From the NCBI GenBank assembly GCA_041651115.1, contig JBAZJY010000002.1, positions 414,855-478,854 on the forward strand: a DNA stretch of 64,000 nucleotides, read 5' to 3'. Positions 3,680 to 57,450 of the stretch are shown piece by piece. The notes below the pieces were generated by a model. The model did no database searches. It saw only the letters and a program-made list of their open reading frames with translations, and had not been told where the DNA came from. Source of the DNA: Candidatus Omnitrophota bacterium (GTDB taxonomy: Bacteria; Omnitrophota; Gorgyraeia; Gygaellales; Profunditerraquicolaceae). The position numbers were made by a program, and so were the translations under genes. Within the stretch, counting starts at the first letter, position 1; each line of letters begins with the position of its first letter.

Positions 3680-4532
3680 TTTTATTTTATTGGCAGTGGT
3701 AATTTTTATCATGGGTATCAGGATTGTCCGGCCTACGCACCGCGGCCTGATTGAGAGATTGGGTAAATATAACCGTTTTGCCGCTCGGGGCTTTAACTGG
3801 ATAATCCCGATTGTAGATAAAATGTATCTGGTGAATATTACCGAGCAAATGGTTGATGCCGAACCGCAGGAGATCATTACTTTTGATAATCTCAATGCCA
3901 AGGTTGACGCGCAGGTCTATTTCAAAGTAAAGGACGACGAGGAAAGCGTAAAAAGCTCGCAATATAATGTTTATAGCTACCAATATCAGATTGTTAACCT
4001 GGCGCGTACAACTCTTAGGAATATTATCGGCACGCTTACCCTTAAATCCGCAAACAGCGAGCGCGGCAAGATTAATGACGAGCTGCATAAGACATTGATG
4101 GATGAAACTGCGCATTGGGGCATTGATATTGTCAGGACAGAGCTGAAAGAAATTGACCCGCCCAAAGACGTACAGGAAACAATGAATAAAGTTGTAAAGG
4201 CGGAAAACGAAAAAGTCGCGGCTGTAGATTTTGCCACTGCTGCGGAAACTGTTGCTGACGGCGAGCGCCGGGCGCAGATCAAGAAGGCTGAAGGCATCAA
4301 GCAGTCAAAGATATTGGCTGCCGAAGGCGAGGCAGAGGCGATCAAGCTGGTGAATGAGGCAGCGGAAAGATATTTTGTCGGCAATGCCCAGGTGCTGCGT
4401 AAGCTTGAGGCAGTGGAAAAGTCGCTTGAGACTAACGCCAAGATCGTTATCCCGGCAAATACCGAACTGGTGAATGTGATCGGTGAAATGGCCGGTATAC
4501 TACCCTTAAAGAAAGAAACGAAAGAAAAGTAA
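3663..4532 (+). CDS. SPFH/Band-7 (stomatin/prohibitin-like) membrane protein
   Basis: AGGAGG lies 5 nt upstream of the ATG at 3663. An N-terminal TM helix is followed by an SPFH-domain pattern (IVRPTHRGLIERLGKY, ITFDNLNAKVDAQVYFKV) and a C-terminal coiled coil. Confidence 0.8.
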   Translation: MNTAYSFILLAVVIFIMGIRIVRPTHRGLIERLGKYNRFAARGFNWIIPIVDKMYLVNITEQMVDAEPQEIITFDNLNAKVDAQVYFKVKDDEESVKSSQYNVYSYQYQIVNLARTTLRNIIGTLTLKSANSERGKINDELHKTLMDETAHWGIDIVRTELKEIDPPKDVQETMNKVVKAENEKVAAVDFATAAETVADGERRAQIKKAEGIKQSKILAAEGEAEAIKLVNEAAERYFVGNAQVLRKLEAVEKSLETNAKIVIPANTELVNVIGEMAGILPLKKETKEK

Positions 4533-4542
4533 GTCGTTCTTT

Positions 4543-4765
4543 TACAATTTTGTGTCTACCTTGTCTTGTTTCTCGCAGGGACGCTCGCCCCGCCCAGCGT
4601 GCGGGGCTTCGTCCTACGCTATCGCGTAGGACTACGCACTACCTGTATAAGAGGAGCTTCGCTCGGGAGTCGGCTTTCGCTCTGCCCTAACGTAAGTGAG
4701 GGCAACCTTGCCCGCTCAAGCCTCCTACGCCCTGCTCAAAACAAGACAAGTTATCCACAAAATTG
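4543..4765. repeat. Family-C structured repeat, copy 1 (about 223 nt; imperfect terminal inverted repeats of about 38 bp, caattttgtg...cttgtcttgttt / aaacaagacaag...cacaaaattg)
   Basis: A near-identical core (ctcgcagggacgctcgccccgcccagcgtgcggggcttcg...ctcgggagtcggctttcgctctgccct...gcccgctcaagcctcctacgccctgctcaaaaca) recurs at 35417..35590. This copy carries an extra 46-nt hairpin insert (tcctacgctatcgcgtaggact...). It is intergenic between the SPFH gene and purD. Confidence 0.8.
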
Positions 4766-4805
4766 ATAACGGAATTAATGTTATATCTGTAAGTTAAGAT
4801 TTTAA

Positions 4806-4975
4806 GGTTTTTGTTCGCAGGCGCATTGCAAATTTTTGCCAGCTTCGTTCACAGATTAGTCGGCAAGGTTTTACGGCGAGCGGAAGCTCTAATGTTACGA
4901 AAGTATGCCTGAGAGCGAGCCGTAAACCGTAGCCGACGGCAAAATGTTTGCAGCGCCGAGAACAAAACCTTAAAA
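4806..4975 (+). promoter_or_regulatory. Long imperfect palindromic 5' leader upstream of purD-purE (candidate attenuator, riboswitch or structured UTR)
   Basis: ggtttttgttcgcaggcgc...gcagcgccgagaacaaaacc pair as outer arms. Inner arms are gtcggcaaggttttacggcgagcgg / gagcgagccgtaaaccgtagccgac. It ends about 18 nt before the purD ATG. Confidence 0.4.
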
Positions 4976-4992
4976 TATAAGGATTAAATATA

Positions 4993-14983: not shown

Positions 14984-15498
14984 TGCTTAACCGCGAAGAG
15001 ATCGAGAAATTAATACAGGAGATAAAGCTGGTAGACGGCTATATGGACGCTGCTGTCCAGTTGACGCCTAATGGTTTTGACTTGACTGCCGCCAGTATTT
15101 TTGAATTTATCGGCCAGGGAAGCGTTGATTTTTCCAATAAGGAGAGGCAGCTTCCGGAATGCCGTGAGGTTGAGGCGCAAAAAGCAAGCCCGCAGGATAA
15201 ATTCGGCTGGTGGCATCTAAGGCCCGGGGTTTATAAAGTAAAAACTAACGAAGCCGTGAACCTGCCGCAGGACCTTATCGCGCTGGCATTTACGCGCACT
15301 TCGCTTCTAAGGGCAGGCGCCTTTACCCAACACGGCGTCTGGGACGCGGGTTTTAAAGGCAAGGGCGAATTTATCTTAAGCGTGCAAAACCCGGCCGGCC
15401 TGAAATTGAAACAGAATGCCCGGGTGGCACAGCTGGTATTTTTGAAGATCAACGAAACTAACCACAGCTATAAGGGGATCTACCAAAACTTAGTTTAA
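14983..15498 (+). CDS. dCTP deaminase/dUTPase-superfamily protein (Dcd-like)
   Basis: Dcd-like motifs RTSLLRAGAF...WDAGFKGKGEFILSVQN...ARVAQLVF; 171 aa. Confidence 0.65.
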   Translation: MLNREEIEKLIQEIKLVDGYMDAAVQLTPNGFDLTAASIFEFIGQGSVDFSNKERQLPECREVEAQKASPQDKFGWWHLRPGVYKVKTNEAVNLPQDLIALAFTRTSLLRAGAFTQHGVWDAGFKGKGEFILSVQNPAGLKLKQNARVAQLVFLKINETNHSYKGIYQNLV

Positions 15499-15612
15499 AG
15501 GTTAAGGTTAAGAAGCCAGTATGGTAAATTAGGTTAGGGTTAAGTATTAATGACCTAACCTTAACCTCTAATCCATACTGGCATCCTGACCCTAACCTAA
15601 TAACTTAACCGA
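15499..15612. repeat. Family-A palindromic intergenic repeat, copy 1 (about 115 nt; ggttaaggttaagaagccagtatggt ... ccatactggcatcct ... aacc)
   Basis: Nested inverted repeats. Two more copies lie at 37641..37762 and 53977..54094, all intergenic and in the same orientation. Confidence 0.85.
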
Positions 15613-15621
15613 TAAATTACG

Positions 15622-16548
15622 ATGGTTATCAGAGGCGTAGAAATTAAAGTTGTAAAAGCCGATATTACCGAATTAAAAGCCGATGCCATTGTCAATGCCG
15701 CAAATAATAAGCTGGTGATGGGCGGAGGGGTTGCCGGCGCCATCCGCAAAAAAGGCGGCAAGGAGATTGAAGAAGAGGCAATTGAGCAGGGCCCGATCAA
15801 GGTCGGCGATGCGGTTGCTACCCCGGCAGGAAGCTTGCCGGCTAAATTCGTCATTCATGCGGCAACCATGGGTATGGATTTTAAGACAGATGAGGTTAAG
15901 GTCAGGGCCGCGGCAAAAAGTGCGCTTTTGCTTGCTGAAAAATTAAAGCTGAAATCAATTGTTTTTCCGGCATTAGGCTGCGGCACCGGAGGGTTTTCTT
16001 TGCTGGCTGCTGCCAAGATCATGGCGCAGGAGGCATTCAGGGTGATCCGGCAGGGCAAGACCTGTTTAAAAGAAATAATCTTTTGCCTTTACGATCAGGA
16101 AGCCGTTGATACTTTTAATACCGGGGTGATTAAATATCTTGAACACATCACCGGTGAATTGCAGAACGGGCCGTTCGCTACGGTTGACGCGATCATTGAG
16201 ATTGACGCGGGAATAGTGATCATTAAAAGAAGCAATCCGCCGTTTGGCTGGGCGCTTCCCGGAGGTTTTCTTGATTTTGGGGAAAAATTAGAAGATGCGG
16301 TTGTGCGGGAGGCAAAAGAAGAGACCGGCCTGGATATTTACGACGTAAAACAATTCCATACCTATTCAGATCCCCGGCGCGATCCGCGCTTCCATACCAT
16401 TGCTACGGTTTTTACTGCCAAGGCAAAAGGCAAGCCCAGAGCAGGCGATGATGCTGCCGCGCTTAAGATCATTACGCAAAAAGATCTACCCAATATAGAG
16501 TTTGCCTTTGATCATAAGCAAATCTTACAGGATTATTTTCAGGTTTAG
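15622..16548 (+). CDS. Macro domain (ADP-ribose/Appr-1''-p processing) fused to a NUDIX hydrolase
   Basis: N-terminal macro motifs ([22 protein letters not shown]). The C-terminal half has a Nudix box ([23 protein letters not shown]). Confidence 0.85.
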
Positions 16549-16622
16549 GGACGGTTTTCAGCCAAGATTAAAAGTATCCCCTTCGGGGCACACTTTTTTC
16601 TTGGACTGAGAACCGTCCCTAT
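16548..16622. repeat. Family-B hairpin repeat, copy 1 (TAGGGACGGTT...AACCGTCCCTA arms; an internal small GC hairpin plus T-run terminator)
   Basis: gggacggttttcagccaag / cttggactgagaaccgtccc arms enclose tatccccttcggggcacactttttt. The left arm begins in the stop codon of the macro-NUDIX gene, as copy 2 at 19465 does with its upstream gene. Confidence 0.75.
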
Positions 16623-16659: not shown

Positions 16660-16807
16660 GTAAATTAGTTACTCACTGATAAAGGCAAACCCGGAGTAAT
16701 CCGGGGACGCAAAGCCAAGGGTCCTTTGAAAAAAGGACAGCCGGTTGCCAAAGGGGTAGAAGAGTCCGACTTTTATGAACCCTAAAGGCTAACCTTTAGG
16801 GTTTTTT
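16660..16807 (+). ncRNA. Candidate small RNA (about 150 nt) bounded by its own promoter and an intrinsic terminator, class unknown
   Basis: There is no ORF over 20 codons on the plus strand. Internal hairpins are cccggagtaatccggg and gtcctttgaaaaaaggac; it ends in gaaccctaaaggctaacctttagggtttttt. It lies between convergent genes. Confidence 0.45.
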
Positions 16808-16976: not shown

Positions 16977-18854
16977 TCATCCTTCGCGCAGCTGCTTCTC
17001 GGCGTCTACGACATCGCGGTTAATGACCCTAATCGTTTCTTTTATCCTGTCTTTGAGGATATAAGAAACGACTTTGGCTTCATGGATCTCCCGCAATATC
17101 TGTATGCTCATCCGGAAATAGCGCACGACTTCACCTTCGTCGGTATCCGTAGCCTGCAGCGTCTTGTCAAAGCTCGTACCCCTTAGCCATGTCTCCACCG
17201 TATTGCTTAAATGAAAATACGGTTCTTTGCTAAAAGAATAAATGTGGAATTTGGTTTCTTTTTCTTTGATCTTGGCGTAAGTTTCCTCACAGATCCTTTT
17301 TACGTGGCGCATCGCCTTTGAGATATGCGGCGGCCGCTGGTTTTTCCGCGGTTCAAACACGCAGGCAGTAGTGACTACGCCCAATCCGAATTCATCCAGT
17401 TGCTCCAGCATTCCTGCCGCGTAAAGCTCTGAAAGTAAAAGCTCATATCCGTATATTGTCTTTGCGAATTCTCCCTTTTGCGAAAGCTCGCCGTTTTCTA
17501 TGTAACCCATATTTTTCAGGAGATTGAGTTTTGCCTCAATAAGGCGCAGCGCGTCTTTTTGCTCGTGCGGCTTTGACTGGTAATAATGCAAGGACAAGGG
17601 ATAGATCTTAAAAAGGTCATCTTTGTGTTTTTCATAAAGGTTAAGTATAGTCGCGTATGAGTTGTTGAGCTGGCTCTTGACTTCTTCGGGATTTGAATAA
17701 ATTATGCGTTTTACGTCGTCAGCCTGGACGCGGCTTAAATTAACGCGGGAATAAACAAAGCCTTCTTTATCAATGCCGCGCCTGCCTGCGCGTCCGGCCA
17801 TTTGGTAAAAATCACGGGTTTTTAAATTCCGCACGTAGCGGCCGTAAAATTTCCTTAATTCGTCAAAGATCACCGAGCGGCTGGGCATATTTATGCCAAG
17901 GGCAAAGGTTTCGGTGGTAAAGATCACTTTTAAGAGCCGGCTGGTAAAAAGCCGCTCTACGACTTCTTTTAAAGTCGGCAGCATCCCGGCATGATGATAG
18001 GCGATTCCCCGGCGGATAAGCGGGAACATATTCTGCGTGGTGCGGTCGTGTTTTAGGTCAAAGCGTTCGCAAAGGTCGTTGAACATTCGGATGATCTGTT
18101 TTTCTTCTTCGGGTTCAAGAAAATCAAAGCCGTGCATTTCAAAGGCGAGGTCTTCTGCGCGGCGCCTGCCAAAGACAAAATAAATACAGGGTAGGCCTTC
18201 TCTTTGGCGCAGGTAGTTTATCAGCATGCTTAATTTATTCGGCTTTGTTCCGCGCAGCCTCTTTAATATATGTACGTTATCCACGACTTCATTCTGGCAT
18301 TGGAAGAAGAAATGCAAGGGTACCGGCCGCTTATCTTCAATTACTACTTTTACCGGCTTGTTGTGGATAGACTCTATCCAGCCGGCGAACTGTTTGATGT
18401 TGGGAATAGTTGCGGAAAGCCCGAGCATGTTCATATGTTTAGGTAGAAAGATCAGGGATTCTTCCCAGACTGTGCCGCGCTCGTAGTTATCAATGTAATG
18501 GATCTCGTCAAAAATGATCCAGGAATACTGCTTGAGGCTGTCCGGTTCATCAAGCACTTTATTGCGGAAGATCTCCGTGGTCATGATCAGGACCGGCGCG
18601 TAAGGGTTGATTGAAACGTCGCCGGTGAGGATCCCGATATTATCTTTGAACTGGCCCTGGAAATCGCGGAATTTCTGGTTGGAAAGCGCCTTGATCGGCG
18701 CGGTATAGATCACCCCGCGCTGGTTCTCAATGCTGGTAGCGATGATATGCTCGGCAATCGCGGTTTTCCCGGCTCCGGTAGGTGCGGAAACGATCACGGA
18801 AAACCCCTGGTTGATGTAGTCGATTGCTTCCTGCTGGAACCGATCGTAGATCAT
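16977..18854 (-). CDS. Ski2/HelY-like DExH-box superfamily-2 helicase
   Basis: 625 aa. Motifs I (APTGAGKT), II (DEIH) and a SAT-like motif, then the helicase C-domain (QMAGRAGRRG) and a C-terminal Ski2-type DSHCT-like region. It is the only large minus-strand gene. Confidence 0.8.
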   Translation of the reverse strand: MIYDRFQQEAIDYINQGFSVIVSAPTGAGKTAIAEHIIATSIENQRGVIYTAPIKALSNQKFRDFQGQFKDNIGILTGDVSINPYAPVLIMTTEIFRNKVLDEPDSLKQYSWIIFDEIHYIDNYERGTVWEESLIFLPKHMNMLGLSATIPNIKQFAGWIESIHNKPVKVVIEDKRPVPLHFFFQCQNEVVDNVHILKRLRGTKPNKLSMLINYLRQREGLPCIYFVFGRRRAEDLAFEMHGFDFLEPEEEKQIIRMFNDLCERFDLKHDRTTQNMFPLIRRGIAYHHAGMLPTLKEVVERLFTSRLLKVIFTTETFALGINMPSRSVIFDELRKFYGRYVRNLKTRDFYQMAGRAGRRGIDKEGFVYSRVNLSRVQADDVKRIIYSNPEEVKSQLNNSYATILNLYEKHKDDLFKIYPLSLHYYQSKPHEQKDALRLIEAKLNLLKNMGYIENGELSQKGEFAKTIYGYELLLSELYAAGMLEQLDEFGLGVVTTACVFEPRKNQRPPHISKAMRHVKRICEETYAKIKEKETKFHIYSFSKEPYFHLSNTVETWLRGTSFDKTLQATDTDEGEVVRYFRMSIQILREIHEAKVVSYILKDRIKETIRVINRDVVDAEKQLREG

Positions 18855-18914: not shown

Positions 18915-19466
18915 ATGGGTTATGATATCGCCATAAATAAGTCGTGGGAAAGCCTGCTGGCGCTTAAACCAGCGGCCAGGCTTTCCGTAAAGCTGCTCGC
19001 CGATGAGTACGACATAGATATTGTCGGCAGGCGGGTGCTTTCGCTTTCCTGCAATGCTCCGGCAAAAGATTATACGGCAATATTGCTGTTGCATTATCTT
19101 GCTCAGAAAATAAAAGGATTGCCGCCCATTTCCGGGGAATGGCTGGATTTTAAAGAGCTTTCCGGAGTTGAGGGCTATCAGGATGCATTCCGTAAAAGGG
19201 TGATCGAACGGATAATCAGGAAATACGGCAGCCAGCCGGATTCTTTGTATTCTGTGCTTGAAAGGTTTCCCGGCAAAAAATCCGGCCAGGCAGATGTAAG
19301 CATCATTTTAGACGTATTCGAAGCTGTGCCTGCGCTGATCGAGCTATGGAAAGCAGATGAGGAATTCAGTCCCGAGGCAAATTTACTTTTTGACCGGAGT
19401 ATTACAAAGATATTCTGCACGGAAGATATTGTAGTCTTGGCGGAATTGATTGCTAATTATGTTTAG
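18915..19466 (+). CDS. Hypothetical protein (possibly DUF3786-like)
   Basis: 183-aa ORF; family assignment is from memory only and is weak. Confidence 0.4.
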   Translation: MGYDIAINKSWESLLALKPAARLSVKLLADEYDIDIVGRRVLSLSCNAPAKDYTAILLLHYLAQKIKGLPPISGEWLDFKELSGVEGYQDAFRKRVIERIIRKYGSQPDSLYSVLERFPGKKSGQADVSIILDVFEAVPALIELWKADEEFSPEANLLFDRSITKIFCTEDIVVLAELIANYV

Positions 19467-19543
19467 GGACGGTTCTGGGCCAAAGCGAAAAGTGTCCCTA
19501 AAAGCAGGGCATTTTTCCCTTTGTCCGCAGAACCGTCCCTAAT
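19465..19543. repeat. Family-B hairpin repeat, copy 2
   Basis: tagggacggttctgggccaaag ... ccgcagaaccgtcccta. It again starts in the stop codon (gtttag) of the upstream gene. Confidence 0.75.
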
Positions 19544-35416: not shown

Positions 35417-35590
35417 CTATTTTGCGTCTGCCTTGTCTTGTTTCTCGCAGGGACGCTCGCCCCGCCCAGCGTGCGGGGCTTCGCTCGGGAGTCGGCTTTC
35501 GCTCTGCCCTAGCGCATACTCGGGCAACCGTGCCCGCTCAAGCCTCCTACGCCCTGCTCAAAACAAAACAAATCAGCCGCAAAATTATAT
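35417..35590. repeat. Family-C structured repeat, copy 2 (about 175 nt)
   Basis: It shares the core and TIR-like ends with 4543..4765 but lacks the 46-nt insert. It is intergenic between GT9 genes. Confidence 0.8.
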
Positions 35591-35600
35591 GGCATAACAT

Positions 35601-37640
35601 ATGGAGGACATTAAGAAAATATTATTCATTACTTTAAGCAACATCGGTGATGTTGTGTTGACCTTGCCGGCGCTGGACCATTTGCGGCAGAAGTTCCCGT
35701 CGGCAAAGGTCTCGGTGATGTGCGGCCAGCGGGCAAGGGAAATATTTGAAGGTGCTCCTTTTATTGAGGAAACGGTCATTTTTGATAAACACGCGGCGTT
35801 AAAAGAAAAAATAAGGCTGTTCAAAGCCTTAAAAGCCAAGAAGTTTGACGCCGTGATCGACCTGCGCAATTCTTTGTTCGGTTTGGGCCTGCCGGCAAAA
35901 TACAAGGTCCCGGTTTTGCGAAAACTTCCTGCGGGTTTGGCGCATATGAAGGATAAGCACTTGTATAAAGTAGCGGGAAAGCAGGCTGCAGATAGCCTGC
36001 GGCATTCGCTTTATATCTCTGCCGCTGATGAAGACTGCGTCGGCCGGATATTAAAGGACAGCCATATTGCTGTCGATGACAGATTGATAGTTATTGCGCC
36101 GGGAAGCCGCAGTCACACCAAGAAATGGGCTAAGGAAAAATTTGTGGAGTTGATTAATCTATTGGCTGGCGAAACAGGGGTAAAAATAGTATTAGCCGGA
36201 GATAAAGCTGATTTGGATACTGCCGATTATATTGCCGCTGCCTGCGGGGCAAAGGCGATAAACCTCTGCGGAAAAACTAATTTGCGCGAGCTCGCCTGCC
36301 TTTTAAAAAGATCAACGCTGCTAGTGACTAATGACAGCGCAGCCTTGCACATAGCGGGTTATTTAGATATCCCGGTTGTCGCGGTATTCGGCATAACCAA
36401 TGAAGTTAAGTATGGCCCGTGGTCACAGAGGCGCGCAGTGGTCAAAAGGGATATTTTCTGCCGGCCATGTGAAAAGGCGCAGTGCAGATTTGGTACTTTG
36501 AAATGTATGCAGCTGATAAAAGTGGAAGACGTATTAAGAGCAGCTAAAGAACTCTTATTCCAGCACCCAGCACCTAACACCAAACACCTGAAACCTGATT
36601 TCCGGCGTATACTTGTTGTGCGCACAGACAGGATCGGCGATGTGCTCCTTTCCACGCCTGTGTTTAAGGCGTTGCGGCAAGCCTATCCGAGCGCTTATAT
36701 TGCCGCGATGGTCAGCCCCTACGCTAAAGAGATCGTTGAAGGCAATCCTTATATTGACGACGTCATAATCTACGATAAAGATTTTAAGCACCGGAGCTGG
36801 AGCAGGTCAATGAAATTCGCTTCCCGGCTGCGTAAAAAGCATTTTGACCTGGCGCTTATCCTGCATCCTATAAACCGCAGCCACCTGATCGCCTTCTTTG
36901 CCGGCATAAAAAGAAGGATCGGTTTTGACAGGAAGCTGGCCTTTTTGCTTACCGATAAAATAAAACACGTTAAGCAGGAAGGAGATAGGCATGAATTGGA
37001 ATATACGCTTGACCTCGTAAGATACTTAGGCATTGAACCGCAGGATAAACAGCCGTTCATGCCGTTAAAGCCTGATTCGGAAAAGTGGGCTGATGAATTG
37101 TTCAGCCGTGAGTCCTTGACAGCGCAGGATAGGTTGTTGGCGATAAATCCCGCTGCCAGCTGCCCGTCTAAGATCTGGCCGGCAGAAAGGTTTGCCGAAA
37201 CAGCGGATAAACTGGCGGATAAATACGGCTTTAAGGTATTGATCTTTTCCGGGCCGAAAGATACAAAATTAGCGGAAACAGTCTTAGGCCATATGCAACA
37301 CCGGGTGATCAACCTTGCGGGAAAAACATCCGTCAGCCAGCTTGCCAGCGCGTTAAAGCGGTGCAGCCTGTTTATTTCCAATGATTCCGGGCCGGTGCAT
37401 ATTGCCGCGGCCGTGGGAGTGCCGGTGATCTCCATTTTCGGCAGGAACCAGAAGGGTTTGAGCCCGAAAAGATGGGGGCCGGTGGGGCCCCTGGATATTA
37501 TTTTGCACCGGCAGGCAGGATGCATCGAATGCCTGGCGCATAATTGCCTGAAAGATTTTGCCTGTTTAAAGTTGATCAAGGTTGACGACGTTGTTAAGGC
37601 AGCAGATACTATCTTGGAAGCACGTAGAGATCATGGTTAA
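35601..37640 (+). CDS. Tandem double GT9 heptosyltransferase (two complete GT9 modules in one 679-aa protein)
   Basis: Module 1 is ILFITLSNIGDVVLTLPAL...DSAALHIAG...CRPC. Module 2 is ILVVRTDRIGDVLLSTPVF...DSGPVHIAAAVG...CIEC. Confidence 0.82.
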   Translation: MEDIKKILFITLSNIGDVVLTLPALDHLRQKFPSAKVSVMCGQRAREIFEGAPFIEETVIFDKHAALKEKIRLFKALKAKKFDAVIDLRNSLFGLGLPAKYKVPVLRKLPAGLAHMKDKHLYKVAGKQAADSLRHSLYISAADEDCVGRILKDSHIAVDDRLIVIAPGSRSHTKKWAKEKFVELINLLAGETGVKIVLAGDKADLDTADYIAAACGAKAINLCGKTNLRELACLLKRSTLLVTNDSAALHIAGYLDIPVVAVFGITNEVKYGPWSQRRAVVKRDIFCRPCEKAQCRFGTLKCMQLIKVEDVLRAAKELLFQHPAPNTKHLKPDFRRILVVRTDRIGDVLLSTPVFKALRQAYPSAYIAAMVSPYAKEIVEGNPYIDDVIIYDKDFKHRSWSRSMKFASRLRKKHFDLALILHPINRSHLIAFFAGIKRRIGFDRKLAFLLTDKIKHVKQEGDRHELEYTLDLVRYLGIEPQDKQPFMPLKPDSEKWADELFSRESLTAQDRLLAINPAASCPSKIWPAERFAETADKLADKYGFKVLIFSGPKDTKLAETVLGHMQHRVINLAGKTSVSQLASALKRCSLFISNDSGPVHIAAAVGVPVISIFGRNQKGLSPKRWGPVGPLDIILHRQAGCIECLAHNCLKDFACLKLIKVDDVVKAADTILEARRDHG

Positions 37641-37762
37641 GTTATTGGGTTAAGGTTAAGAAGCCAGTATGGTAGTTAGGTTAGGGTTAAGTATTAATGA
37701 CCTAACCATAACCTTTAAACCATACCGGCATCCTAGCCCTAACCTTAACCATAACCTAACTA
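37641..37762. repeat. Family-A palindromic intergenic repeat, copy 2
   Basis: gttattgggttaaggttaagaagccagtatggt...ccataccggcatcct...aaccttaacc. Confidence 0.85.
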
Positions 37763-41525: not shown

Positions 41526-42340
41526 GCAGGTCTTTAATCGTCAATGCCGATGATTTCGGTTTAGATAACCGGATAAACCAGGGTATAGCCGAATGCTGCT
41601 CAAGCGGGATCGTCAGGAGCATCTCGCTTGTTGCCAACGGCCCGGCATTTGAGCATGCCTTAAGCCTGGCCCGGCAAATGCCGGATACCGGCATCGGAGT
41701 GCATTTATGTTTAGTCAATGAAAAACCGCTTCTGGCCGGCATGGCCGGCCAGAACGGGTTGCTGCCGCAGGATTGTTACCGTTTATTTTTTAAGCTCTGC
41801 AGCCGGCGCTTGAACCTTTTGGATGTAGAACAGGAACTTGACGCGCAGATAAAAAAAATTTTGGACAGCGGCATAACGCCTACGCACCTTGATAGCCATC
41901 AGTATACGCATCTGATCCCTGCGATATTTGATATTGTGATGCGGCTGGGAAAGAAGTATAATATTAAATGGATACGCTGCCCGCGGGGGTGGAGGCGGGC
42001 CCGCGGCGCATCATCCGCAGACCTTTTTAAAAAAACATATCTGGCATTGTTTTCCCGCCGGCGGATAGAAGCGCTAAAAGGCAACGGCTTTCGCTGCGCC
42101 GATATTTCTTTTGGTTTTACCGGCAGTGGCCGGCTTAGTGAACAGGCGGTAAGGGAATTTTTGCAGAGATTTGGCTCCGGCATGGCGGATCTGGCTTGCC
42201 ATCCGGGATATTTACCGCAAAGCGGCAAGTACCGCGCATGGGGCTATTGCTGGGAAGAAGAAGCCGCGGTCCTTAAAAGCAAGGGCATAAGAACATTGAT
42301 TGAAAAATTGAATATTAGCCTTACCAACTATGCAGCTTAA
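41522..42340 (+). CDS. YdjC/ChbG-family carbohydrate deacetylase (HpnK-like)
   Basis: LIVNADDFGL...THLDSHQYTH pattern. The start ATG at 41522 overlaps the preceding stop. Confidence 0.75.
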   Translation: MSRSLIVNADDFGLDNRINQGIAECCSSGIVRSISLVANGPAFEHALSLARQMPDTGIGVHLCLVNEKPLLAGMAGQNGLLPQDCYRLFFKLCSRRLNLLDVEQELDAQIKKILDSGITPTHLDSHQYTHLIPAIFDIVMRLGKKYNIKWIRCPRGWRRARGASSADLFKKTYLALFSRRRIEALKGNGFRCADISFGFTGSGRLSEQAVREFLQRFGSGMADLACHPGYLPQSGKYRAWGYCWEEEAAVLKSKGIRTLIEKLNISLTNYAA

Positions 42341-44528
42341 AAAGACATTCTCTTTTTTTCATCTGTTTTTGCTCTTTCTGCTGATCGTATTTTACGGGGT
42401 GAACAATTATATTTGGCTGCATTTAAATCGTTATCCTTTTGTGGATGACGAGGCAGTGCATTTGATCTCCGCAACGCGCTATATGGAGACCCTTTCCCGG
42501 CCCGGCGCGGATATGTTTTCGGCGTTAGCCGGCGTGGACAAGCTTTACCCGCCGTTTTTCCCGTTTATAGCCTCTCTTTTTGGCCTTGCCTTTGGAGGCG
42601 GGGCTGTCAGTATTATCTTATCCAATCTCTTATTTTTATTCGGTATATTCGTTTGCCTGTATTTTATCGGATTAAAAATGGGCGACGCAAGGCTCGGGCT
42701 CCTGGCAGCGCTGATACTGTCGCTGTACCCGATGATTTTCCAGCTTGGCCGCATGTGCATGCTGGAAACCGCGTTAACTTTTACTGTAGTTGCCGCTGTC
42801 ACGGCAATGATCTATTCCGATGGCTTTAAAAGAACGAAGCCGAGCGCCCTGTTTGGGCTGATTTTCGGGCTGGGCGTCCTGACAAAACAAAGCTATGTGG
42901 TGTTGATCATCGGCCCTTTGCTGCTTATCGCGGGAGTTTCCCTTTTTAAGGGGAGTTGGCAGGACAGGAGGAGGGTGGCCGGTAATTTACTTTTATCTTT
43001 TGTAATAGGGGCAGCTGTTGCCTCTTTGTGGTATGTGCCGAATTTTAAGACAATGTTGCCTCTGGCCATAGCCGCGGCTACCGATTCGGCTTTAGTGCCG
43101 TATAACATACCGGTTTTTTCCTTCTGGTCATTTTCCTTCTACTTACGTTCGCTGGTCAACGAACAGATACTCTTTTTCTTCTTTGTGCTGCTCTTAATGG
43201 CAACCCCCGTATTTTTTAAACGGAAAAAAGATGAATTTTTCTTTCTGTTCCTCGTTTGGATCATAGTTACCTATCTTATCCGGACTTTCATCGGCAATAA
43301 ATTCCTTTATTATACTGTATCTTGCCTTCCTGCCGTGGCGCTGGTCACGGCCTGCGGCATTATGAATATGAAAAAGGATTCTTTAAGGAAGATAATAATC
43401 TGGCTTATCTTTATCGTCGGGTTTGCTCAGTATTTCCTGATTTCCTATATCCACTACGGCCATGTCAGTCTGCACATGGCTTTTCATACCGGGACCGAAA
43501 AAGACAAAAGCAGGATGTTGGATATTTTCCTGTTTCCCGGAACAGAGATCCTTGCGGGGGTAAAACATTTTCCCCGGGGCGGAAACTTCAAGCGCCTGGA
43601 GCTGGTCAACGCCATATTAAAGGGATCGCGCGGTATCATGCCGAAGATCGGGGTTTTTGGTTTTGACCCCAATTTGGAAAATAAGAAAGACCCCGGTAAA
43701 TCCGTGATCATGACCAAGCTTGATAGTTATGCCGGAGCCAATTTTGACGGCCTGAATTATTATTTATTGTCGCAGAAGATATCTTATAAGATTTTTCCGT
43801 TGAATTCCGATCTGGACATGAGGGTAAATTTTATCGTTACGCCGATCGAGCTGGAAAAGATAGACTCCGCCGATTTTAAAATTCCCATCCGGGATTTTGT
43901 GCCGGTAGAAGAATTTGCCATGCCGGATACCAGCAGCGTTTATCTATACCGGCTCAGCAAGGTAACCCCGTTTATCCTCAATTATACCCCGCAGCTTTCA
44001 CCGGAATATAAAATGTCCAGCGCCCGGATCGATATCCACAGCGCAGACATGAAATTTGCGTTTAAGGATGTTAAAAGCAACGGCGTAGCCCAGGTTGCCG
44101 AGTGGCTGCCGGAAAAAGATTGGACGAAAAGCTGGATTACGCAAATGGAACTGGTCAGTAATATGTGGCAGCAGCTGTGGATAGAATTTGTGCCGCTTGA
44201 ATCGGGTGATATGTATATACAGTTCAGGGGATCGTTTTATCCGGATAATGAATCCAACCACCATGAAGTTTATGTTGATGACGTAGCCATAGAAGGCAAG
44301 GGGCTGAAGATCGTAAACGGCAGCTTTGAAGAGCAGAACTATCTCGGTAGTCCTTTAACTTGGGATTTGCCCGTGGCATCATCCAGCCAAACTACGGAGT
44401 TGGCACGCAGCGGAAGGTGCTCGGTTCTTATTTGGCATGACAGCCCGCTGGTAAAGAAAATACCCGTAAAGGCAGGGGTGAAATACCGCCTTAGCGCGTG
44501 GTTCAAACCGTATAATCCGGTAGAATAA
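42330..44528 (+). CDS. ArnT/PMT-like (GT39/GT83) polytopic membrane glycosyltransferase with a C-terminal periplasmic beta-rich (CBM-like) domain
   Basis: About 11 predicted TM helices. A conserved acidic loop motif YPFVDDEAVHLISATRYME follows TM1. The C-terminal roughly 250 aa are soluble. Confidence 0.7.
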   Translation: MQLKKTFSFFHLFLLFLLIVFYGVNNYIWLHLNRYPFVDDEAVHLISATRYMETLSRPGADMFSALAGVDKLYPPFFPFIASLFGLAFGGGAVSIILSNLLFLFGIFVCLYFIGLKMGDARLGLLAALILSLYPMIFQLGRMCMLETALTFTVVAAVTAMIYSDGFKRTKPSALFGLIFGLGVLTKQSYVVLIIGPLLLIAGVSLFKGSWQDRRRVAGNLLLSFVIGAAVASLWYVPNFKTMLPLAIAAATDSALVPYNIPVFSFWSFSFYLRSLVNEQILFFFFVLLLMATPVFFKRKKDEFFFLFLVWIIVTYLIRTFIGNKFLYYTVSCLPAVALVTACGIMNMKKDSLRKIIIWLIFIVGFAQYFLISYIHYGHVSLHMAFHTGTEKDKSRMLDIFLFPGTEILAGVKHFPRGGNFKRLELVNAILKGSRGIMPKIGVFGFDPNLENKKDPGKSVIMTKLDSYAGANFDGLNYYLLSQKISYKIFPLNSDLDMRVNFIVTPIELEKIDSADFKIPIRDFVPVEEFAMPDTSSVYLYRLSKVTPFILNYTPQLSPEYKMSSARIDIHSADMKFAFKDVKSNGVAQVAEWLPEKDWTKSWITQMELVSNMWQQLWIEFVPLESGDMYIQFRGSFYPDNESNHHEVYVDDVAIEGKGLKIVNGSFEEQNYLGSPLTWDLPVASSSQTTELARSGRCSVLIWHDSPLVKKIPVKAGVKYRLSAWFKPYNPVE

Positions 44529-44580
44529 ATAGGGACAGACACTATTTTTCTGTAGAAAAATAGTGTCTGTCCCTATTTAT
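44529..44580 (+). terminator. Perfect 22-bp palindrome followed by a T-rich run (terminator of the LPS-core operon)
   Basis: aatagggacagacactatttttctgtagaaaaatagtgtctgtccctatttatttttc. Confidence 0.7.
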
Positions 44581-44638
44581 TTTTCTCCTATTTTTCGTTT
44601 GCTAAAGCCACTAATTTATGATAAACTGACATCTTCGT

Positions 44639-53945: not shown

Positions 53946-53976
53946 AAAGAGACGCTTATTAATATTTGATACCTTT

Positions 53977-54094
53977 GGTTAAGTTATTGGGTTAAGGTTA
54001 AGAAGCCAGTATGGTGGGTAGGTTATGGTTGAGTATCAACGACCTAACCTTAACCCTTAAACCATACCGGCATCCTAACCATAACCATAACCAA
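53977..54094. repeat. Family-A palindromic intergenic repeat, copy 3
   Basis: ggttaagttattgggttaaggttaagaagccagtatggt...ccataccggcatcctaacc. Confidence 0.85.
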
Positions 54095-54136: not shown

Positions 54137-55723
54137 ATGATCAAAATATTAGTCAGTGACGCGCTATCGGATGAGGGCATTAAGATACTTAAGGACGTCA
54201 AGGATTTTCAGGTTGACGTCAATACCGAATTAAAGCCGGATACCCTTAAAGAAGCGATCAAGAATTATGACGCGCTGATCGTCAGGAGCGCGACCAAGGT
54301 CACCCGCGATATCATTAATGCCGCGGATAAGCTCAAAGTCATCGGCCGCGCCGGCGTGGGCCTTGATAACGTGGACCTGGACGCTGCCACGCAAAAAGGG
54401 ATCATCGTGATGAATACGCCTGCCGGCAATACTATCTCAACCGCGGAACACACGATGAGCATGATCCTTTCGCTTTCCCGTAATATCCCGCAGGCAAACA
54501 GCTCAACGAAGAAAGGCGAATGGAAGCGCTCAAAATTCATGGGCGTGGAATTATACACTAAAGTTTTGGGTATTGTCGGATTTGGCAGGATCGGCGGTGA
54601 GGTTGCCAAGCGTGCTTTTTCTTTCGGGATGAAAGTATTGGCATTTGACCCGTTCCTTTCGCGTGAGGTCGCCGAGAGCCTGGGGGTAGAGGTAGTGGAA
54701 TTAAAGGACCTCCTCGGCCGCGCGGATTATATTACCGTGCATACTCCGCTTACCGAAGAAACGCGGCATATGATCTCTGCGGAAGAATTCGCGATCATGA
54801 AAAAAGGCGTGCGCGTGGTCAATTGCGCGCGCGGAGGCATTATTGACGAGGCGGCCCTGGTGCAGGCGATAAAAGAAGGAAAGGTCGCGGGCGCGGCGCT
54901 CGATGTTTTTGAAAAAGAGCCTTTGTCGCCGGATAGCGAGCTCCTAAAAGTAGATAATATTATTGCCACTCCTCACTTGGGCGCGTCTACTGAAGAAGCA
55001 CAGGTCAATGTGGCCATTGAAGTGGCGGAGATCGTGCGCGACGCGCTTCTGGGTAAGGGTATACGTAATGCCGCTAATTATCCATGCCTTGAGGCGGAAG
55101 TATGCAATATCCTTGAGCCGTATATTAACCTTTCGGAAAAACTGGGAATATTTTCCGGCCAGTTGGTAGAAGGCAGGTTCCAGGAATTAAGCATAACTTA
55201 CAGCGGGGAAATCATCCAGTATAATTTAAGCCCGTTGACTATGGCGCTGGTAAAGGGCATACTTTCCCCGATATTAAAGGAAACGGTAAATTTTATCAAT
55301 GCCGTAAGCCTGGCGCGGGAAAGGGGAATAAATGTCCGGGAATCAAAGTCTTCCAAAGAGGGCGAATTCGTAAATTTGATCCAGCTGGAAATAAGGACCG
55401 ATAAAGAGACCAAAAAGATCGCCGGCACGCTTTCCGCGAACAAACAGCCGCGCATCGTCAAGATCGACGAGAGCTATATGGAAGTTACTCCGGTGGGAGA
55501 AATGATCGTCATGCAAAATTGGGACCGGCCGGGTATTATCGGCAGCCTCGGTACGTTGATGGGTAAGCACAATATTAATATCGCGGCAATGACCTTTGGC
55601 CGCCGGGAGCGCGGAGGCAAAGCTACTTCCGTGTTGAACGTAGACAGCCCGATCTCTCCTGAAGTATTGGAAAGCATCCGGAAAACGGAAAACGTCTTGG
55701 AAGTAAAGATTATCAGGATATGA
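54137..55723 (+). CDS. serA: D-3-phosphoglycerate dehydrogenase (with ASB and ACT domains)
   Basis: GIVGFGRIGGEVAKRA NAD site and the catalytic R/E/H pattern; 528 aa. Confidence 0.9.
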   Translation: MIKILVSDALSDEGIKILKDVKDFQVDVNTELKPDTLKEAIKNYDALIVRSATKVTRDIINAADKLKVIGRAGVGLDNVDLDAATQKGIIVMNTPAGNTISTAEHTMSMILSLSRNIPQANSSTKKGEWKRSKFMGVELYTKVLGIVGFGRIGGEVAKRAFSFGMKVLAFDPFLSREVAESLGVEVVELKDLLGRADYITVHTPLTEETRHMISAEEFAIMKKGVRVVNCARGGIIDEAALVQAIKEGKVAGAALDVFEKEPLSPDSELLKVDNIIATPHLGASTEEAQVNVAIEVAEIVRDALLGKGIRNAANYPCLEAEVCNILEPYINLSEKLGIFSGQLVEGRFQELSITYSGEIIQYNLSPLTMALVKGILSPILKETVNFINAVSLARERGINVRESKSSKEGEFVNLIQLEIRTDKETKKIAGTLSANKQPRIVKIDESYMEVTPVGEMIVMQNWDRPGIIGSLGTLMGKHNINIAAMTFGRRERGGKATSVLNVDSPISPEVLESIRKTENVLEVKIIRI

Positions 55724-57450
55724 TAAATAAATTAAAAATTATTTTCGCGTTTTTCATTTTAGGCCTTGCGTTTAATTGTTATGCCGAAGAGATAACGCTG
55801 ATCTATACCGGCGATACGCACGCAGCGCTTTATCCATGCCATTGCCCGAAGGAGCCGGATGGCGGCATCAGCCGCAGGGCGACCCTGATCAATAAATTAA
55901 GGAAAGGCTCAGCTGCCAGCCTGGTCCTGGATTCAGGCGGATTCTTTGCCGGAGGGGCCTTTGATGAAAATGCTCAAAATACCCAGCTTGACATGCAGCG
56001 CACAGCAACAAACATCCGGGCAATGGAGTTGATGCGTTATGACGCCGCCCTTGTTTCTAATGACGAATTTAATTTCGGGCCGGAGTTCCTTAAACAGTCC
56101 GCTGCCGGGGCAAAATTTGCTTTTCTTTCCTGCGATGTCGCCCTGGATGGCCTTGCCGCCTTTATTATTAAGGAAATTTCCGGGATTAAGGTCGGCATAG
56201 CCGGCGTAACCGGGATCTCCGCGCAGCGGAAAGCTGCCGGGATAAAATCCATTGATCCGAAGGCAGCGGTCAGGATGACGGTGGAGGAAATTAAAAAGAA
56301 GAACGCGGAGATTATTATCCTGCTCAGCGGATTATCGGAAAGCGATAATGCGGAACTGGCGAAAGAAGTGCCGGGCATAGACATCATTATCAGTAACCGC
56401 GGCAAGACAAAAAAGGAAAAAGCAGTAAAGTCCGGGACAGCCTTAATGCTCAATCCGGCTTGGCAGGGAAGGAAATTAACCAAGGTTGCCGTCGCGTTAA
56501 AGGGCCGTAAGCTTGCCGATTATAAATCGGAAGACCTGCGGCTTTCTTCAGAGATCGCCGATGACCCGGCTGTATCGGCAATCCGGCCGCAATGTTTTTC
56601 CGATTATGACTGCAGGAAAAAAGGCATGTCCGGCTCTTGTAAGAATCCGGGAAACGTTAATGCCGAATGCCGTTTTAGCGAACCTGCGAAGGTCAGCCTT
56701 ACCGTGGTTGTTCCCAAAGACTGCCGGGTATGCGACACCAGGCCGCTGGTGGATTATTTAAAAAACCACCTCCCCGGGCTTGCGGTCTCCCAGGTGCGTT
56801 ATCCTTCACCTGAAGCGGATAAGTTGATCAAGGCTTGCGGGGTAAAAGCCCTGCCGCTTTATCTTTTAGGCAAAGAAGTGGAAAATCAACCGTTTTTTTA
56901 CGCCCAGCTTAAAAAGGCATCTGAAGATAAAGGCGAATTTTATATGCTCAAACCGGCATATACCGGGATATCTTATCTCTTAGAGAGAGACCCGATTAAA
57001 GGCAGGCTTGACCTGTTCGTCAGCTTGTTCGGGAAAGACGCAAAAGTTTCGGTGGATGCCGCAAAGGAATTCAATCCTTCGCTGCATTTCCTGGTTTTTC
57101 AAAAAGACGGCGCATTCAGCGCTGCCAAGGGCACGCCTGAGATTGAGGAAAGCCTGCGCAGCGTTTGCGTAAAAAAATATTATCCCGGATTATTTTTAGA
57201 TTATATCGGCTGCCGGATGAAAGCCATTGACAGTACCTGGTGGCAGGATTGCGCCGCAGGCATGGATCATGCGCAAATCGCCTCCTGCGCAAAAAGCGAG
57301 GAAGGCGCCGGGCTGCTTAGGGAGAATATCAGCCTTAATCAGGAGGCCCAGGTAACGATCGGGCCGTCTTATCTTATGGATAATATTGAAATGTTCGCGA
57401 TCGAAGGTAAACCTGCTCCGGAAGACTTGAGGAAAGTCATAAAAAAGTGA
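55720..57450 (+). CDS. Secreted cysteine-rich two-part protein: N-terminal metallophosphoesterase/5'-nucleotidase-like fold and C-terminal thioredoxin/DsbA-like region
   Basis: Signal peptide MINKLKIIFAFFILGLAFNCYA. ITLIYTGDTHAALYPCHCP resembles a 5'-NT-like N-terminus. DCRVCD (CxxC) sits in a Trx-like context. The domain calls are tentative. Confidence 0.5.
   Translation: MINKLKIIFAFFILGLAFNCYAEEITLIYTGDTHAALYPCHCPKEPDGGISRRATLINKLRKGSAASLVLDSGGFFAGGAFDENAQNTQLDMQRTATNIRAMELMRYDAALVSNDEFNFGPEFLKQSAAGAKFAFLSCDVALDGLAAFIIKEISGIKVGIAGVTGISAQRKAAGIKSIDPKAAVRMTVEEIKKKNAEIIILLSGLSESDNAELAKEVPGIDIIISNRGKTKKEKAVKSGTALMLNPAWQGRKLTKVAVALKGRKLADYKSEDLRLSSEIADDPAVSAIRPQCFSDYDCRKKGMSGSCKNPGNVNAECRFSEPAKVSLTVVVPKDCRVCDTRPLVDYLKNHLPGLAVSQVRYPSPEADKLIKACGVKALPLYLLGKEVENQPFFYAQLKKASEDKGEFYMLKPAYTGISYLLERDPIKGRLDLFVSLFGKDAKVSVDAAKEFNPSLHFLVFQKDGAFSAAKGTPEIEESLRSVCVKKYYPGLFLDYIGCRMKAIDSTWWQDCAAGMDHAQIASCAKSEEGAGLLRENISLNQEAQVTIGPSYLMDNIEMFAIEGKPAPEDLRKVIKK

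Follow-up and report, generated by a model that had tools for sequence, protein, structure and literature searches.

The window, i.e. the whole stretch of 64,000 nucleotides of Candidatus Omnitrophota DNA that was analysed, holds two related copies of a structured, non-coding repeat. Copy 1 is located after the stop codon of a Band_7/SPFH gene, upstream of purD, and copy 2 is flanked by two Glyco_transf_9 genes. Both copies were found in the places given by a first-pass annotation of this DNA, which had put them between an SPFH gene and the purD leader and between two heptosyltransferase genes, respectively. They point in the same direction and occupy spacers that separate plus-strand genes. 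The copies and their parts are listed below.

4545-4765, better-folding G-rich strand minus: copy 1, long form, 221 nt, with ends CAATTTTGTG...CACAAAATTG
4545-4580: left inverted arm of copy 1, CAATTTTGTGTCTACCTTGTCTTGTTTCTCGCAGGG, 36 nt, 83% complementary to 4730-4765; matches the arm profile
4587-4607: hairpin 1 of copy 1, GCCCCGC-CCAGCGT-GCGGGGC; folds, and covaries in the nine-copy alignment
4612-4661: 50-nt block private to copy 1; fold of -15.6 kcal/mol
4682-4703: apical variable hairpin of copy 1, TGCCCTAAC-GTAA-GTGAGGGCA; fold and covariation
4730-4765: right inverted arm of copy 1; inverted-repeat and arm profile matches
about 35418-35587, G-rich strand minus: copy 2, short form, about 170 nt, with ends TATTTTGCG...CGCAAAATTA
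35418-35452: left inverted arm of copy 2; inverted-repeat and arm profile matches
35459-35479: hairpin 1 of copy 2; fold and nine-copy alignment
35505-35526: apical variable hairpin of copy 2, TGCCCTA...TCGGGCA; fold and nine-copy alignment
35552-35587: right inverted arm of copy 2; fold and arm profile

When the extra block of copy 1 is excluded, the two copies are equal at 156 of 173 aligned positions (90%). The annotated GC-rich core was confirmed, having a GC content of 0.64 in copy 1 and 0.72 in copy 2 compared with 0.48 for the window. The imperfect inverted ends, annotated as approximately 38 bp long, are likewise present, measuring 36 nt with 83% complementarity in copy 1. Family arms read ATTTTGCGG...GTTTCTCGCAGGG, and the arm profile recovers the arms in every copy. 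Arms of 36 nt compare with the at least 10-15 bp expected of terminal inverted repeats (TIRs), and a length of 170-221 nt, which leaves no coding capacity for a transposase, lies within the range of 50-800 bp used for small elements. The open reading frames of the element are short and unconserved, and an ORF translated from it, searched with the aim of harvesting mis-called copies, had no match in 5.8 billion proteins.

A 17-mer of the element occurs at two sites only in the window when up to 3 mismatches are allowed, where 0.17 are expected, and the fold z-scores of the copies range from -4.4 to -8.0. No further copies were found in the window using the arm profile at E-values up to 1, and none in 19 kb of extra flanking sequence, making a total of two for the roughly 83 kb of genome covered. 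An independent ENA assembly of the same organism reproduces copy 1 without a single base difference. Together with the differences of about 10% between the copies and their unlike flanks, this excludes the assembly duplication artefact that the annotation had named as a way in which it could be wrong. Chance similarity or artefact as a general explanation, favoured by the low copy number in the window and by nothing else, has practically no probability given an identity of 90% instead of 100%, unrelated flanking sequences, the independent assembly and homologues in other genomes.

The 46-nt hairpin insertion annotated in copy 1 stood in part. The extra block is real; its length is 50 nt, and the hairpin is limited to the first 20-22 nt, with 9 bp formed by bases 4611-4632 (GTCCTACGC-TATC-GCGTAGGAC). 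The block is bracketed by a 6-nt direct repeat, GCTTCG (4606-4611 and 4656-4661), and is missing from all eight other copies. As to its source, no second copy was found in any sequence compared. Two further hairpins had been drawn in the core. The first, ccccgc/gcgggg, is real and covaries, while the second, gggcaacc-ttgccc, competes as drawn with a conserved helix, namely the adjacent apical hairpin, the sequence of which is variable between copies.

Copies in related genomes

The annotation had allowed for the case that no further copies exist. Seven more were found in other Omnitrophota MAGs and metagenomes; their gene contexts are unrelated, and both orientations occur. Scanning one genome per species with an exact 20-mer gave two true copies together with 22 matches to a 25-mer in unrelated contexts; both true copies are full copies on different contigs of Omnitrophica MAG A4_bin-512 (L004:3778-3953 and L008:1-166), and the latter terminates its contig. 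An exact 21-mer scan of JGI metagenomes gave another two true copies (L026 and L027) and two chance matches. The remaining three were found in the purD neighbourhoods of relatives, where they directly precede purD in reverse orientation (L030:2080-2252, L029:72-244 and L034:2311-2478). Neither an exact-pattern scan of viral contigs nor a BLAST search of plasmids and phages returned any copies.

None of the loci outside the window is syntenic with the window copies. The same Gfo/Idh/MocA-lpxB operon is found downstream of the element in L008 and L026, with the element in opposite orientations and at different distances. The insertion sites are AT-rich spacers between genes, occupied in either orientation.

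The junction of copy 2 was compared with three relatives. The spacer from heptosyltransferase II to the next gene is 205 nt in the window and 27 nt (86% protein identity, from gene coordinates only), 1 nt (84%) and 32 nt (75%) in the relatives. All three lack copy 2 at the orthologous junction, so that it represents a lineage-specific insertion. The site of copy 1 is occupied in every relative examined, and copy 1 may therefore be old and vertically inherited instead of recently moved.

What occupies the copy 1 site differs among relatives. L040, with 80% PurD identity, has a 75-nt hairpin consisting of the same arms without the core, and L031 and L034 carry minis of a similar kind with lengths of 75-85 nt. 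The loops of the minis retain unlike remnants of the core ends, GACGC in L040 and TACGC-T in L031, which suggests that the minis arose by independent internal deletions of the full element. In L030 the order is a 27-nt left-arm fragment, orthologous to the left end of copy 1, followed by an element with the same arms and a different core (L030a), a 328-aa gene and a full copy in reverse. Another element combining the same arms with a different core is L027b, and solo arm fragments are present in L030, L004 and L033. The copies in L029 and L030 share the left half and differ in the right half, so one of them is a mosaic, probably the L029 copy, composed of two subtypes. As judged from these loci, the repeat family inserts, inverts, recombines between copies and erodes into solo arms and core-less minis. 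At some sites the element persists for long periods, decaying there.

The spacer between Band_7 and purD is a hot spot of gene content in the relatives and is gene-free in the window. The 328-aa gene (L030:1070-2056) and a 154-aa gene (L031:9201-9665) both lie between hairpin elements and have no Pfam match on record. The 'purD leader' of the window, at 4797-4980, is a second, unrelated long-hairpin element with ends TTTTAAGGTTTTTGTTCGCAGGCGC...GCAGCGCCGAGAACAAAACCTTAAAA and a fold of -76 kcal/mol (z = -7.4). A homologue in L033 is found upstream of purD with a left-arm fragment of the present family nested inside it, and other relatives have different hairpin elements at this position, just before the purD ribosome-binding site.

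Fold and strand asymmetry

Nine copies were aligned on the G-rich strand (alignment A6), and a consensus structure was calculated using RNAalifold. In this structure, a long stem formed by the arms closes off a junction from which two hairpins emerge. Covariation of the stems, which the annotation had proposed as a check, was observed: 94.3% of the cells hold standard pairs, compared with 34-48% when the partners are slid by 1-3 columns, and 16 pairs have changed on both sides, compared with 2-6 in the slid controls, in an alignment of nine related copies from about seven insertion events and with a structure derived from the same sequences. The observed pairing values were attained in 0 of 500 shuffles.

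The two-sided changes are found in three helices. Six pairs of the arm stem have changed on both sides, with 95.7% of the cells paired (e.g. GTCTTG/CAAGAC, GGCTTG/CAAGCC and GGGTAG/CTACCC). For hairpin 1 the figure is five out of eight pairs, as in CCCCGC/GCGGGG, GCCACGCC/GGCGTGGC and TTTGCC/GGCAAA, and for the apical hairpin (helix 4) it is five out of seven across the copies. The two short junction helices show no covariation, and the unpaired blocks between helices are invariant. Two sequence types, GGGAGTCGGCTT with AAGCCTCC and GGCTTTCGGCC with GGCCTGCAAA, suggest that there may be a further long-range pairing, the two types amounting to essentially one evolutionary event. According to this model the whole element is predicted to form one long imperfect stem, the 'TIRs', capped by two conserved sub-hairpins and kept by compensatory changes.

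The two strands are not equivalent. The G-rich strand, which is the minus strand of the window, folds better by 7-18 kcal/mol in eight out of eight copies, copy 1 being taken without its extra block, and is again the better one when DNA parameters are used (-48.9 versus -40.8 kcal/mol). Within the structure there are 35 G.U cells, belonging to 11 pairs, versus 5 A.C cells, and the transitions from arm to arm comprise 23 of the G.U type versus 4 of the A.C type, these counts coming from few and related sequences and being partly an effect of base composition. A tandem G.A/A.G loop is invariant and occurs on the G-rich strand only. Altogether, these asymmetries point to selection acting on a single strand in its folded form.

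Eight of the nine copies carry four GAGCG pentamers on the G-rich strand, and L030b carries three; there are none on the other strand, and 0.4 are expected. Their positions are conserved and flank the two inner hairpins; on the minus strand of copy 2 they are element positions 53, 88, 106 and 134. These pentamers may be recognition tags.

Mode of propagation and competing readings

We regard the element as a non-autonomous, non-coding repeat of the MITE/REPIN kind that belongs to a clade of Omnitrophota and is propagated via a folded single strand, with a probability of about 0.7. The annotation had called it MITE-like, and this description is supported by the lack of coding sequence, the inverted ends, the non-syntenic sites, the two orientations, the polymorphism of copy 2 and the presence of fragments and minis.

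In mechanistic terms, propagation or retention would depend on the folded single strand and not only on two double-stranded ends bound by a transposase. The folded strand would most likely be single-stranded DNA at the replication fork and less likely RNA, and the enzyme moving the element in trans would be the product of a gene at another place in the genome. Candidate recognition sites in such a process are the four GAGCG pentamers that lie on the same strand around the inner hairpins, and effects on neighbouring genes, through a hairpin in the mRNA or through insulation, would be a by-product. For the mobiliser itself we tentatively put forward a hairpin-recognising HUH/Y1 enzyme (IS200/IS605-, RAYT- or TIRYT-like), at somewhat less than an even chance; a DDE transposase is possible. 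A precedent has been documented in families of the TIR type, whose long inverted repeats are associated with Y1 TIRYT transposases (PMC3733652).

No consistent target-site duplication was found in the flanks of the nine copies and the empty sites of copy 2, where the flanks are AT-rich and the spacers diverged, and no defined target can be read from the seven independent insertions. A transposase of any kind is absent from the 64-kb window and from about 19 kb of extra flank, in which the sole recombinase is a XerC/D-type gene beside topA and dprA. Among all loci compared, there was neither an autonomous partner with matching ends nor a RAYT gene flanked by the repeat. The 328-aa gene of L030 was considered as a transposase and rejected, having no Pfam domain on record and not being transposase-like.

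The element could instead be a classical cut-and-paste MITE, i.e. an internally deleted DDE insertion sequence in which the 36-nt ends are duplex binding sites and the stem is a side effect. This would agree with the inverted ends, the small size, the lack of coding capacity and the AT-rich intergenic sites, and arms that are shared between elements with unlike cores (L030a, L027b) or no core (L040, L031) are typical of MITE families; the dimorphism of 170 versus 221 nt also recalls the 105 and 155 bp forms of Correia elements (PMC2649163). However, no target-site duplication is visible in the AT-rich flanks of any copy, and no DDE gene was seen in the window. In every copy the same differences separate the left arm from the right one, the invariant tandem G.A/A.G loop among them, and neither the compensation of arm changes across the stem nor the bias of mismatches towards G.U on one strand is predicted by a protein binding two duplex ends. 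The inner hairpins covary as well, and we consider a DDE-derived MITE unlikely. We give similarly low weight to a composite origin, in which an older, arms-only hairpin repeat of 75-85 nt received a GC-rich, REP-like module in its loop. Core-less minis with the same arms do exist, even at the copy 1 site, the core side begins with 20 nt (CTCGCAGGGACGCTCGCCCC) identical to a portion of a 25-nt motif from other phyla, and REPs nested within longer palindromes have been documented (PMC3733652). On the other hand, the core was never seen alone without arms, and the unlike remnants of the core ends in the mini loops fit independent deletions better.

A dispersed small-RNA gene, offered as the alternative in the annotation, found no support. 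The copies would then be paralogous genes for a small RNA, or a cis-acting structured RNA, with a function for the host. The multi-helix structure with covariation, the invariant unpaired blocks between the helices and the one-strand G.U bias are all as expected of an RNA. REPINs, too, form a hairpin in which compensatory changes across the stem are common (PMC3116915), and for this reason covariation alone does not indicate an RNA gene. A consensus scan revealed no sigma-70-type promoter and no intrinsic terminator in or beside either copy. Nothing relevant was obtained from Rfam, either for the whole window at the gathering score or for both copies at E-values up to 10, the best scores being 12-19 bits where the cut-offs are 35-78. 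For copy 1, copy 2 and L004 the favoured strand runs antisense to the operon, and for L008 and the L030/L029/L034 insertion it is sense, while L026 and L027 lie in divergent spacers; such mixed orientation relative to the neighbouring genes speaks against an RNA for which transcription in a single sense is required. Close relatives lack copy 2 at the orthologous site, the contexts are non-syntenic and the element decays to fragments and minis, and we hold a small-RNA gene to be very improbable.

Several other identities were tried and rejected. Integron attC sites do not fit because the flanking genes are syntenic housekeeping genes (purine and LPS-core synthesis), and the arms have no RYYYAAC/GTTRRRY arrangement. 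As an intrinsic terminator the element would be reversed, the arms reading T-run, stem, A-run. A ribozyme or retrozyme and a retron were both rejected on anatomy.

Known repeat systems and other features of the window

The element is a new family of a known kind, that of the bacterial MITE/REPIN-like structured palindromic repeats. PATEs, which are derived from IS200/IS605, make no target-site duplication and require strand-specific folded single-stranded DNA. The element is similar to them in its strand-specific fold, and no target-site duplication could be read from its AT-rich flanks. It differs in that each end of a PATE has a subterminal hairpin, long terminal inverted repeats being absent, and in that PATEs insert 3' of a fixed tetra- or pentanucleotide; no such fixed sequence is apparent here.

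The likeness to REPINs (PMC3116915) is that of a non-coding intergenic repeat whose whole length is one long imperfect hairpin, with common compensatory changes in the stem, long persistence in a lineage and decayed remnants; for REPINs, too, inner hairpins have been proposed, in an alternative clover-like fold. In contrast to REPINs, the element is about twice as long (170-220 nt versus about 70-110), has two inner covarying hairpins and a GC-rich core, and lacks a conserved GTAG or CGTC tag beside a short REP stem. GTAG is found in 'type 1' copies only (GGGCGTAGGAGG) and is replaced in L026, L027, L029 and L034, and CGTC is found at a distance of 5 nt from hairpin 1 instead of beside the stem. 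Furthermore, no RAYT was found for the element, and few copies have been seen so far.

TIR families associated with TIRYTs (PMC3733652) are moderately abundant repeats that, like the element, are defined by long inverted repeats and not by REPs; some are self-complementary, and they are reported in phyla outside Proteobacteria. Unlike in these families, no TIRYT gene flanked by the element arms was found, and the motif GGGGWSAS, common to several TIRYT ends, is missing from the arms. The Correia (CREE, nemis) elements of Neisseria (PMC2649163) are also intergenic, bounded by inverted repeats and 100-160 bp long; their sites are filled or empty depending on the strain, the two size classes differ by about 50 bp, and the transcript forms a hairpin. 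They have 26-bp repeats and duplicate a TA target, whereas no TA duplication is evident in the element. In CREE the long form is ancestral and the short form an internal deletion, whereas the 50-nt block of the element is private to copy 1 and looks derived.

A literature search returned no paper linking Omnitrophota with MITEs, and a MITE survey of 183,232 genomes makes no mention of the phylum. The repeats of Omnitrophota, and of uncultured PVC bacteria generally, are essentially uncatalogued. Current views of how such elements work are unchanged by the present family. The points worth following are the covarying fold on one strand, the GAGCG tags and the 20-mer shared across phyla; with its covarying inner helices, its bias towards one strand and its repeated GAGCG tag, the long hairpin provides a tractable substrate for finding a mover of TIR- or REP-like elements outside Proteobacteria.

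There are practical consequences as well. Such elements break assemblies, point to hot spots at which gene order changes (the Band_7-purD spacer, for instance), and cause false N-terminal extensions and spurious ORFs in annotation. A PurD homologue of 495 aa (P0007) has a 70-residue N-terminal extension (..FEQHVENSSGHG..) that reads like a translated upstream element of the superfamily, and the copy in L004 is accompanied by spurious ORFs of 90 and 96 aa (3703-3975 and 3782-4072). In the independent ENA assembly, the contig with the right end of the window stops at about 57,085 (the start of L038), where the NCBI contig is continuous; this position falls inside a 576-aa ORF (55720-57450) without a Pfam match.

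The 20-mer CTCGCAGGGACGCTCGCCCC at the boundary of arm and core is part of a 25-nt motif, GGCTCGCAGGGACGCTCGCCCCACC, which is present in MAGs of Verrucomicrobiota, Acidobacteriota, Methylomirabilota and Planctomycetota as singlets or as head-to-head doublets 25-130 nt apart. A literature search for the 25-mer string found no paper. The REP/REPIN-like behaviour of the motif hints at a module or a recognition system that may be shared across phyla. It is rather improbable that the element is the Omnitrophota branch of phylum-spanning, strand-folded repeats sharing this 20-mer and served by an enzyme that reads four GAGCG-flanked hairpins, or that its G-rich strand is a functional mobile RNA. Exact conservation of the 25-nt motif was observed among L001-L024, e.g. 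L002:795-865, L015:693-764 and L010:1243-1314. It lies within a tandem array of about 70 nt in L011 and L013 and inside an ORF in L001 and L010 (...LAGTLAPP...), in one case in frame within a gene.

The window contains additional repeats. A third family, with the sequence GGTTAAGGTTAAG..., has members at 15487-15604, 37634-37751 and 53976-54093; they are approximately 118 nt long, internally palindromic and intergenic, with 69-91% identity. Repeats of 35-38 nt with the sequence GTTTAGGGACGG..., both direct and inverted, are found at 16543-16621 and 19461-19498 and bracket a minus-strand helicase gene (16977-18854). A c-di-GMP-I-GGC riboswitch aptamer is located at 16675-16753 on the plus strand (68.4 bits, cut-off 59). 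It is followed by no plus-strand ORF of at least 90 codons before 18915, and the DEAD/DSHCT helicase gene next to it is encoded by the minus strand. Finally, a palindrome at 44524-44581, with perfect arms of 28 nt and a 2-nt gap (AATAAATAGGGACAGACACTATTTTTCT/AGAAAAATAGTGTCTGTCCCTATTTATT), is situated at the 3' end of the gene at 42330-44528.
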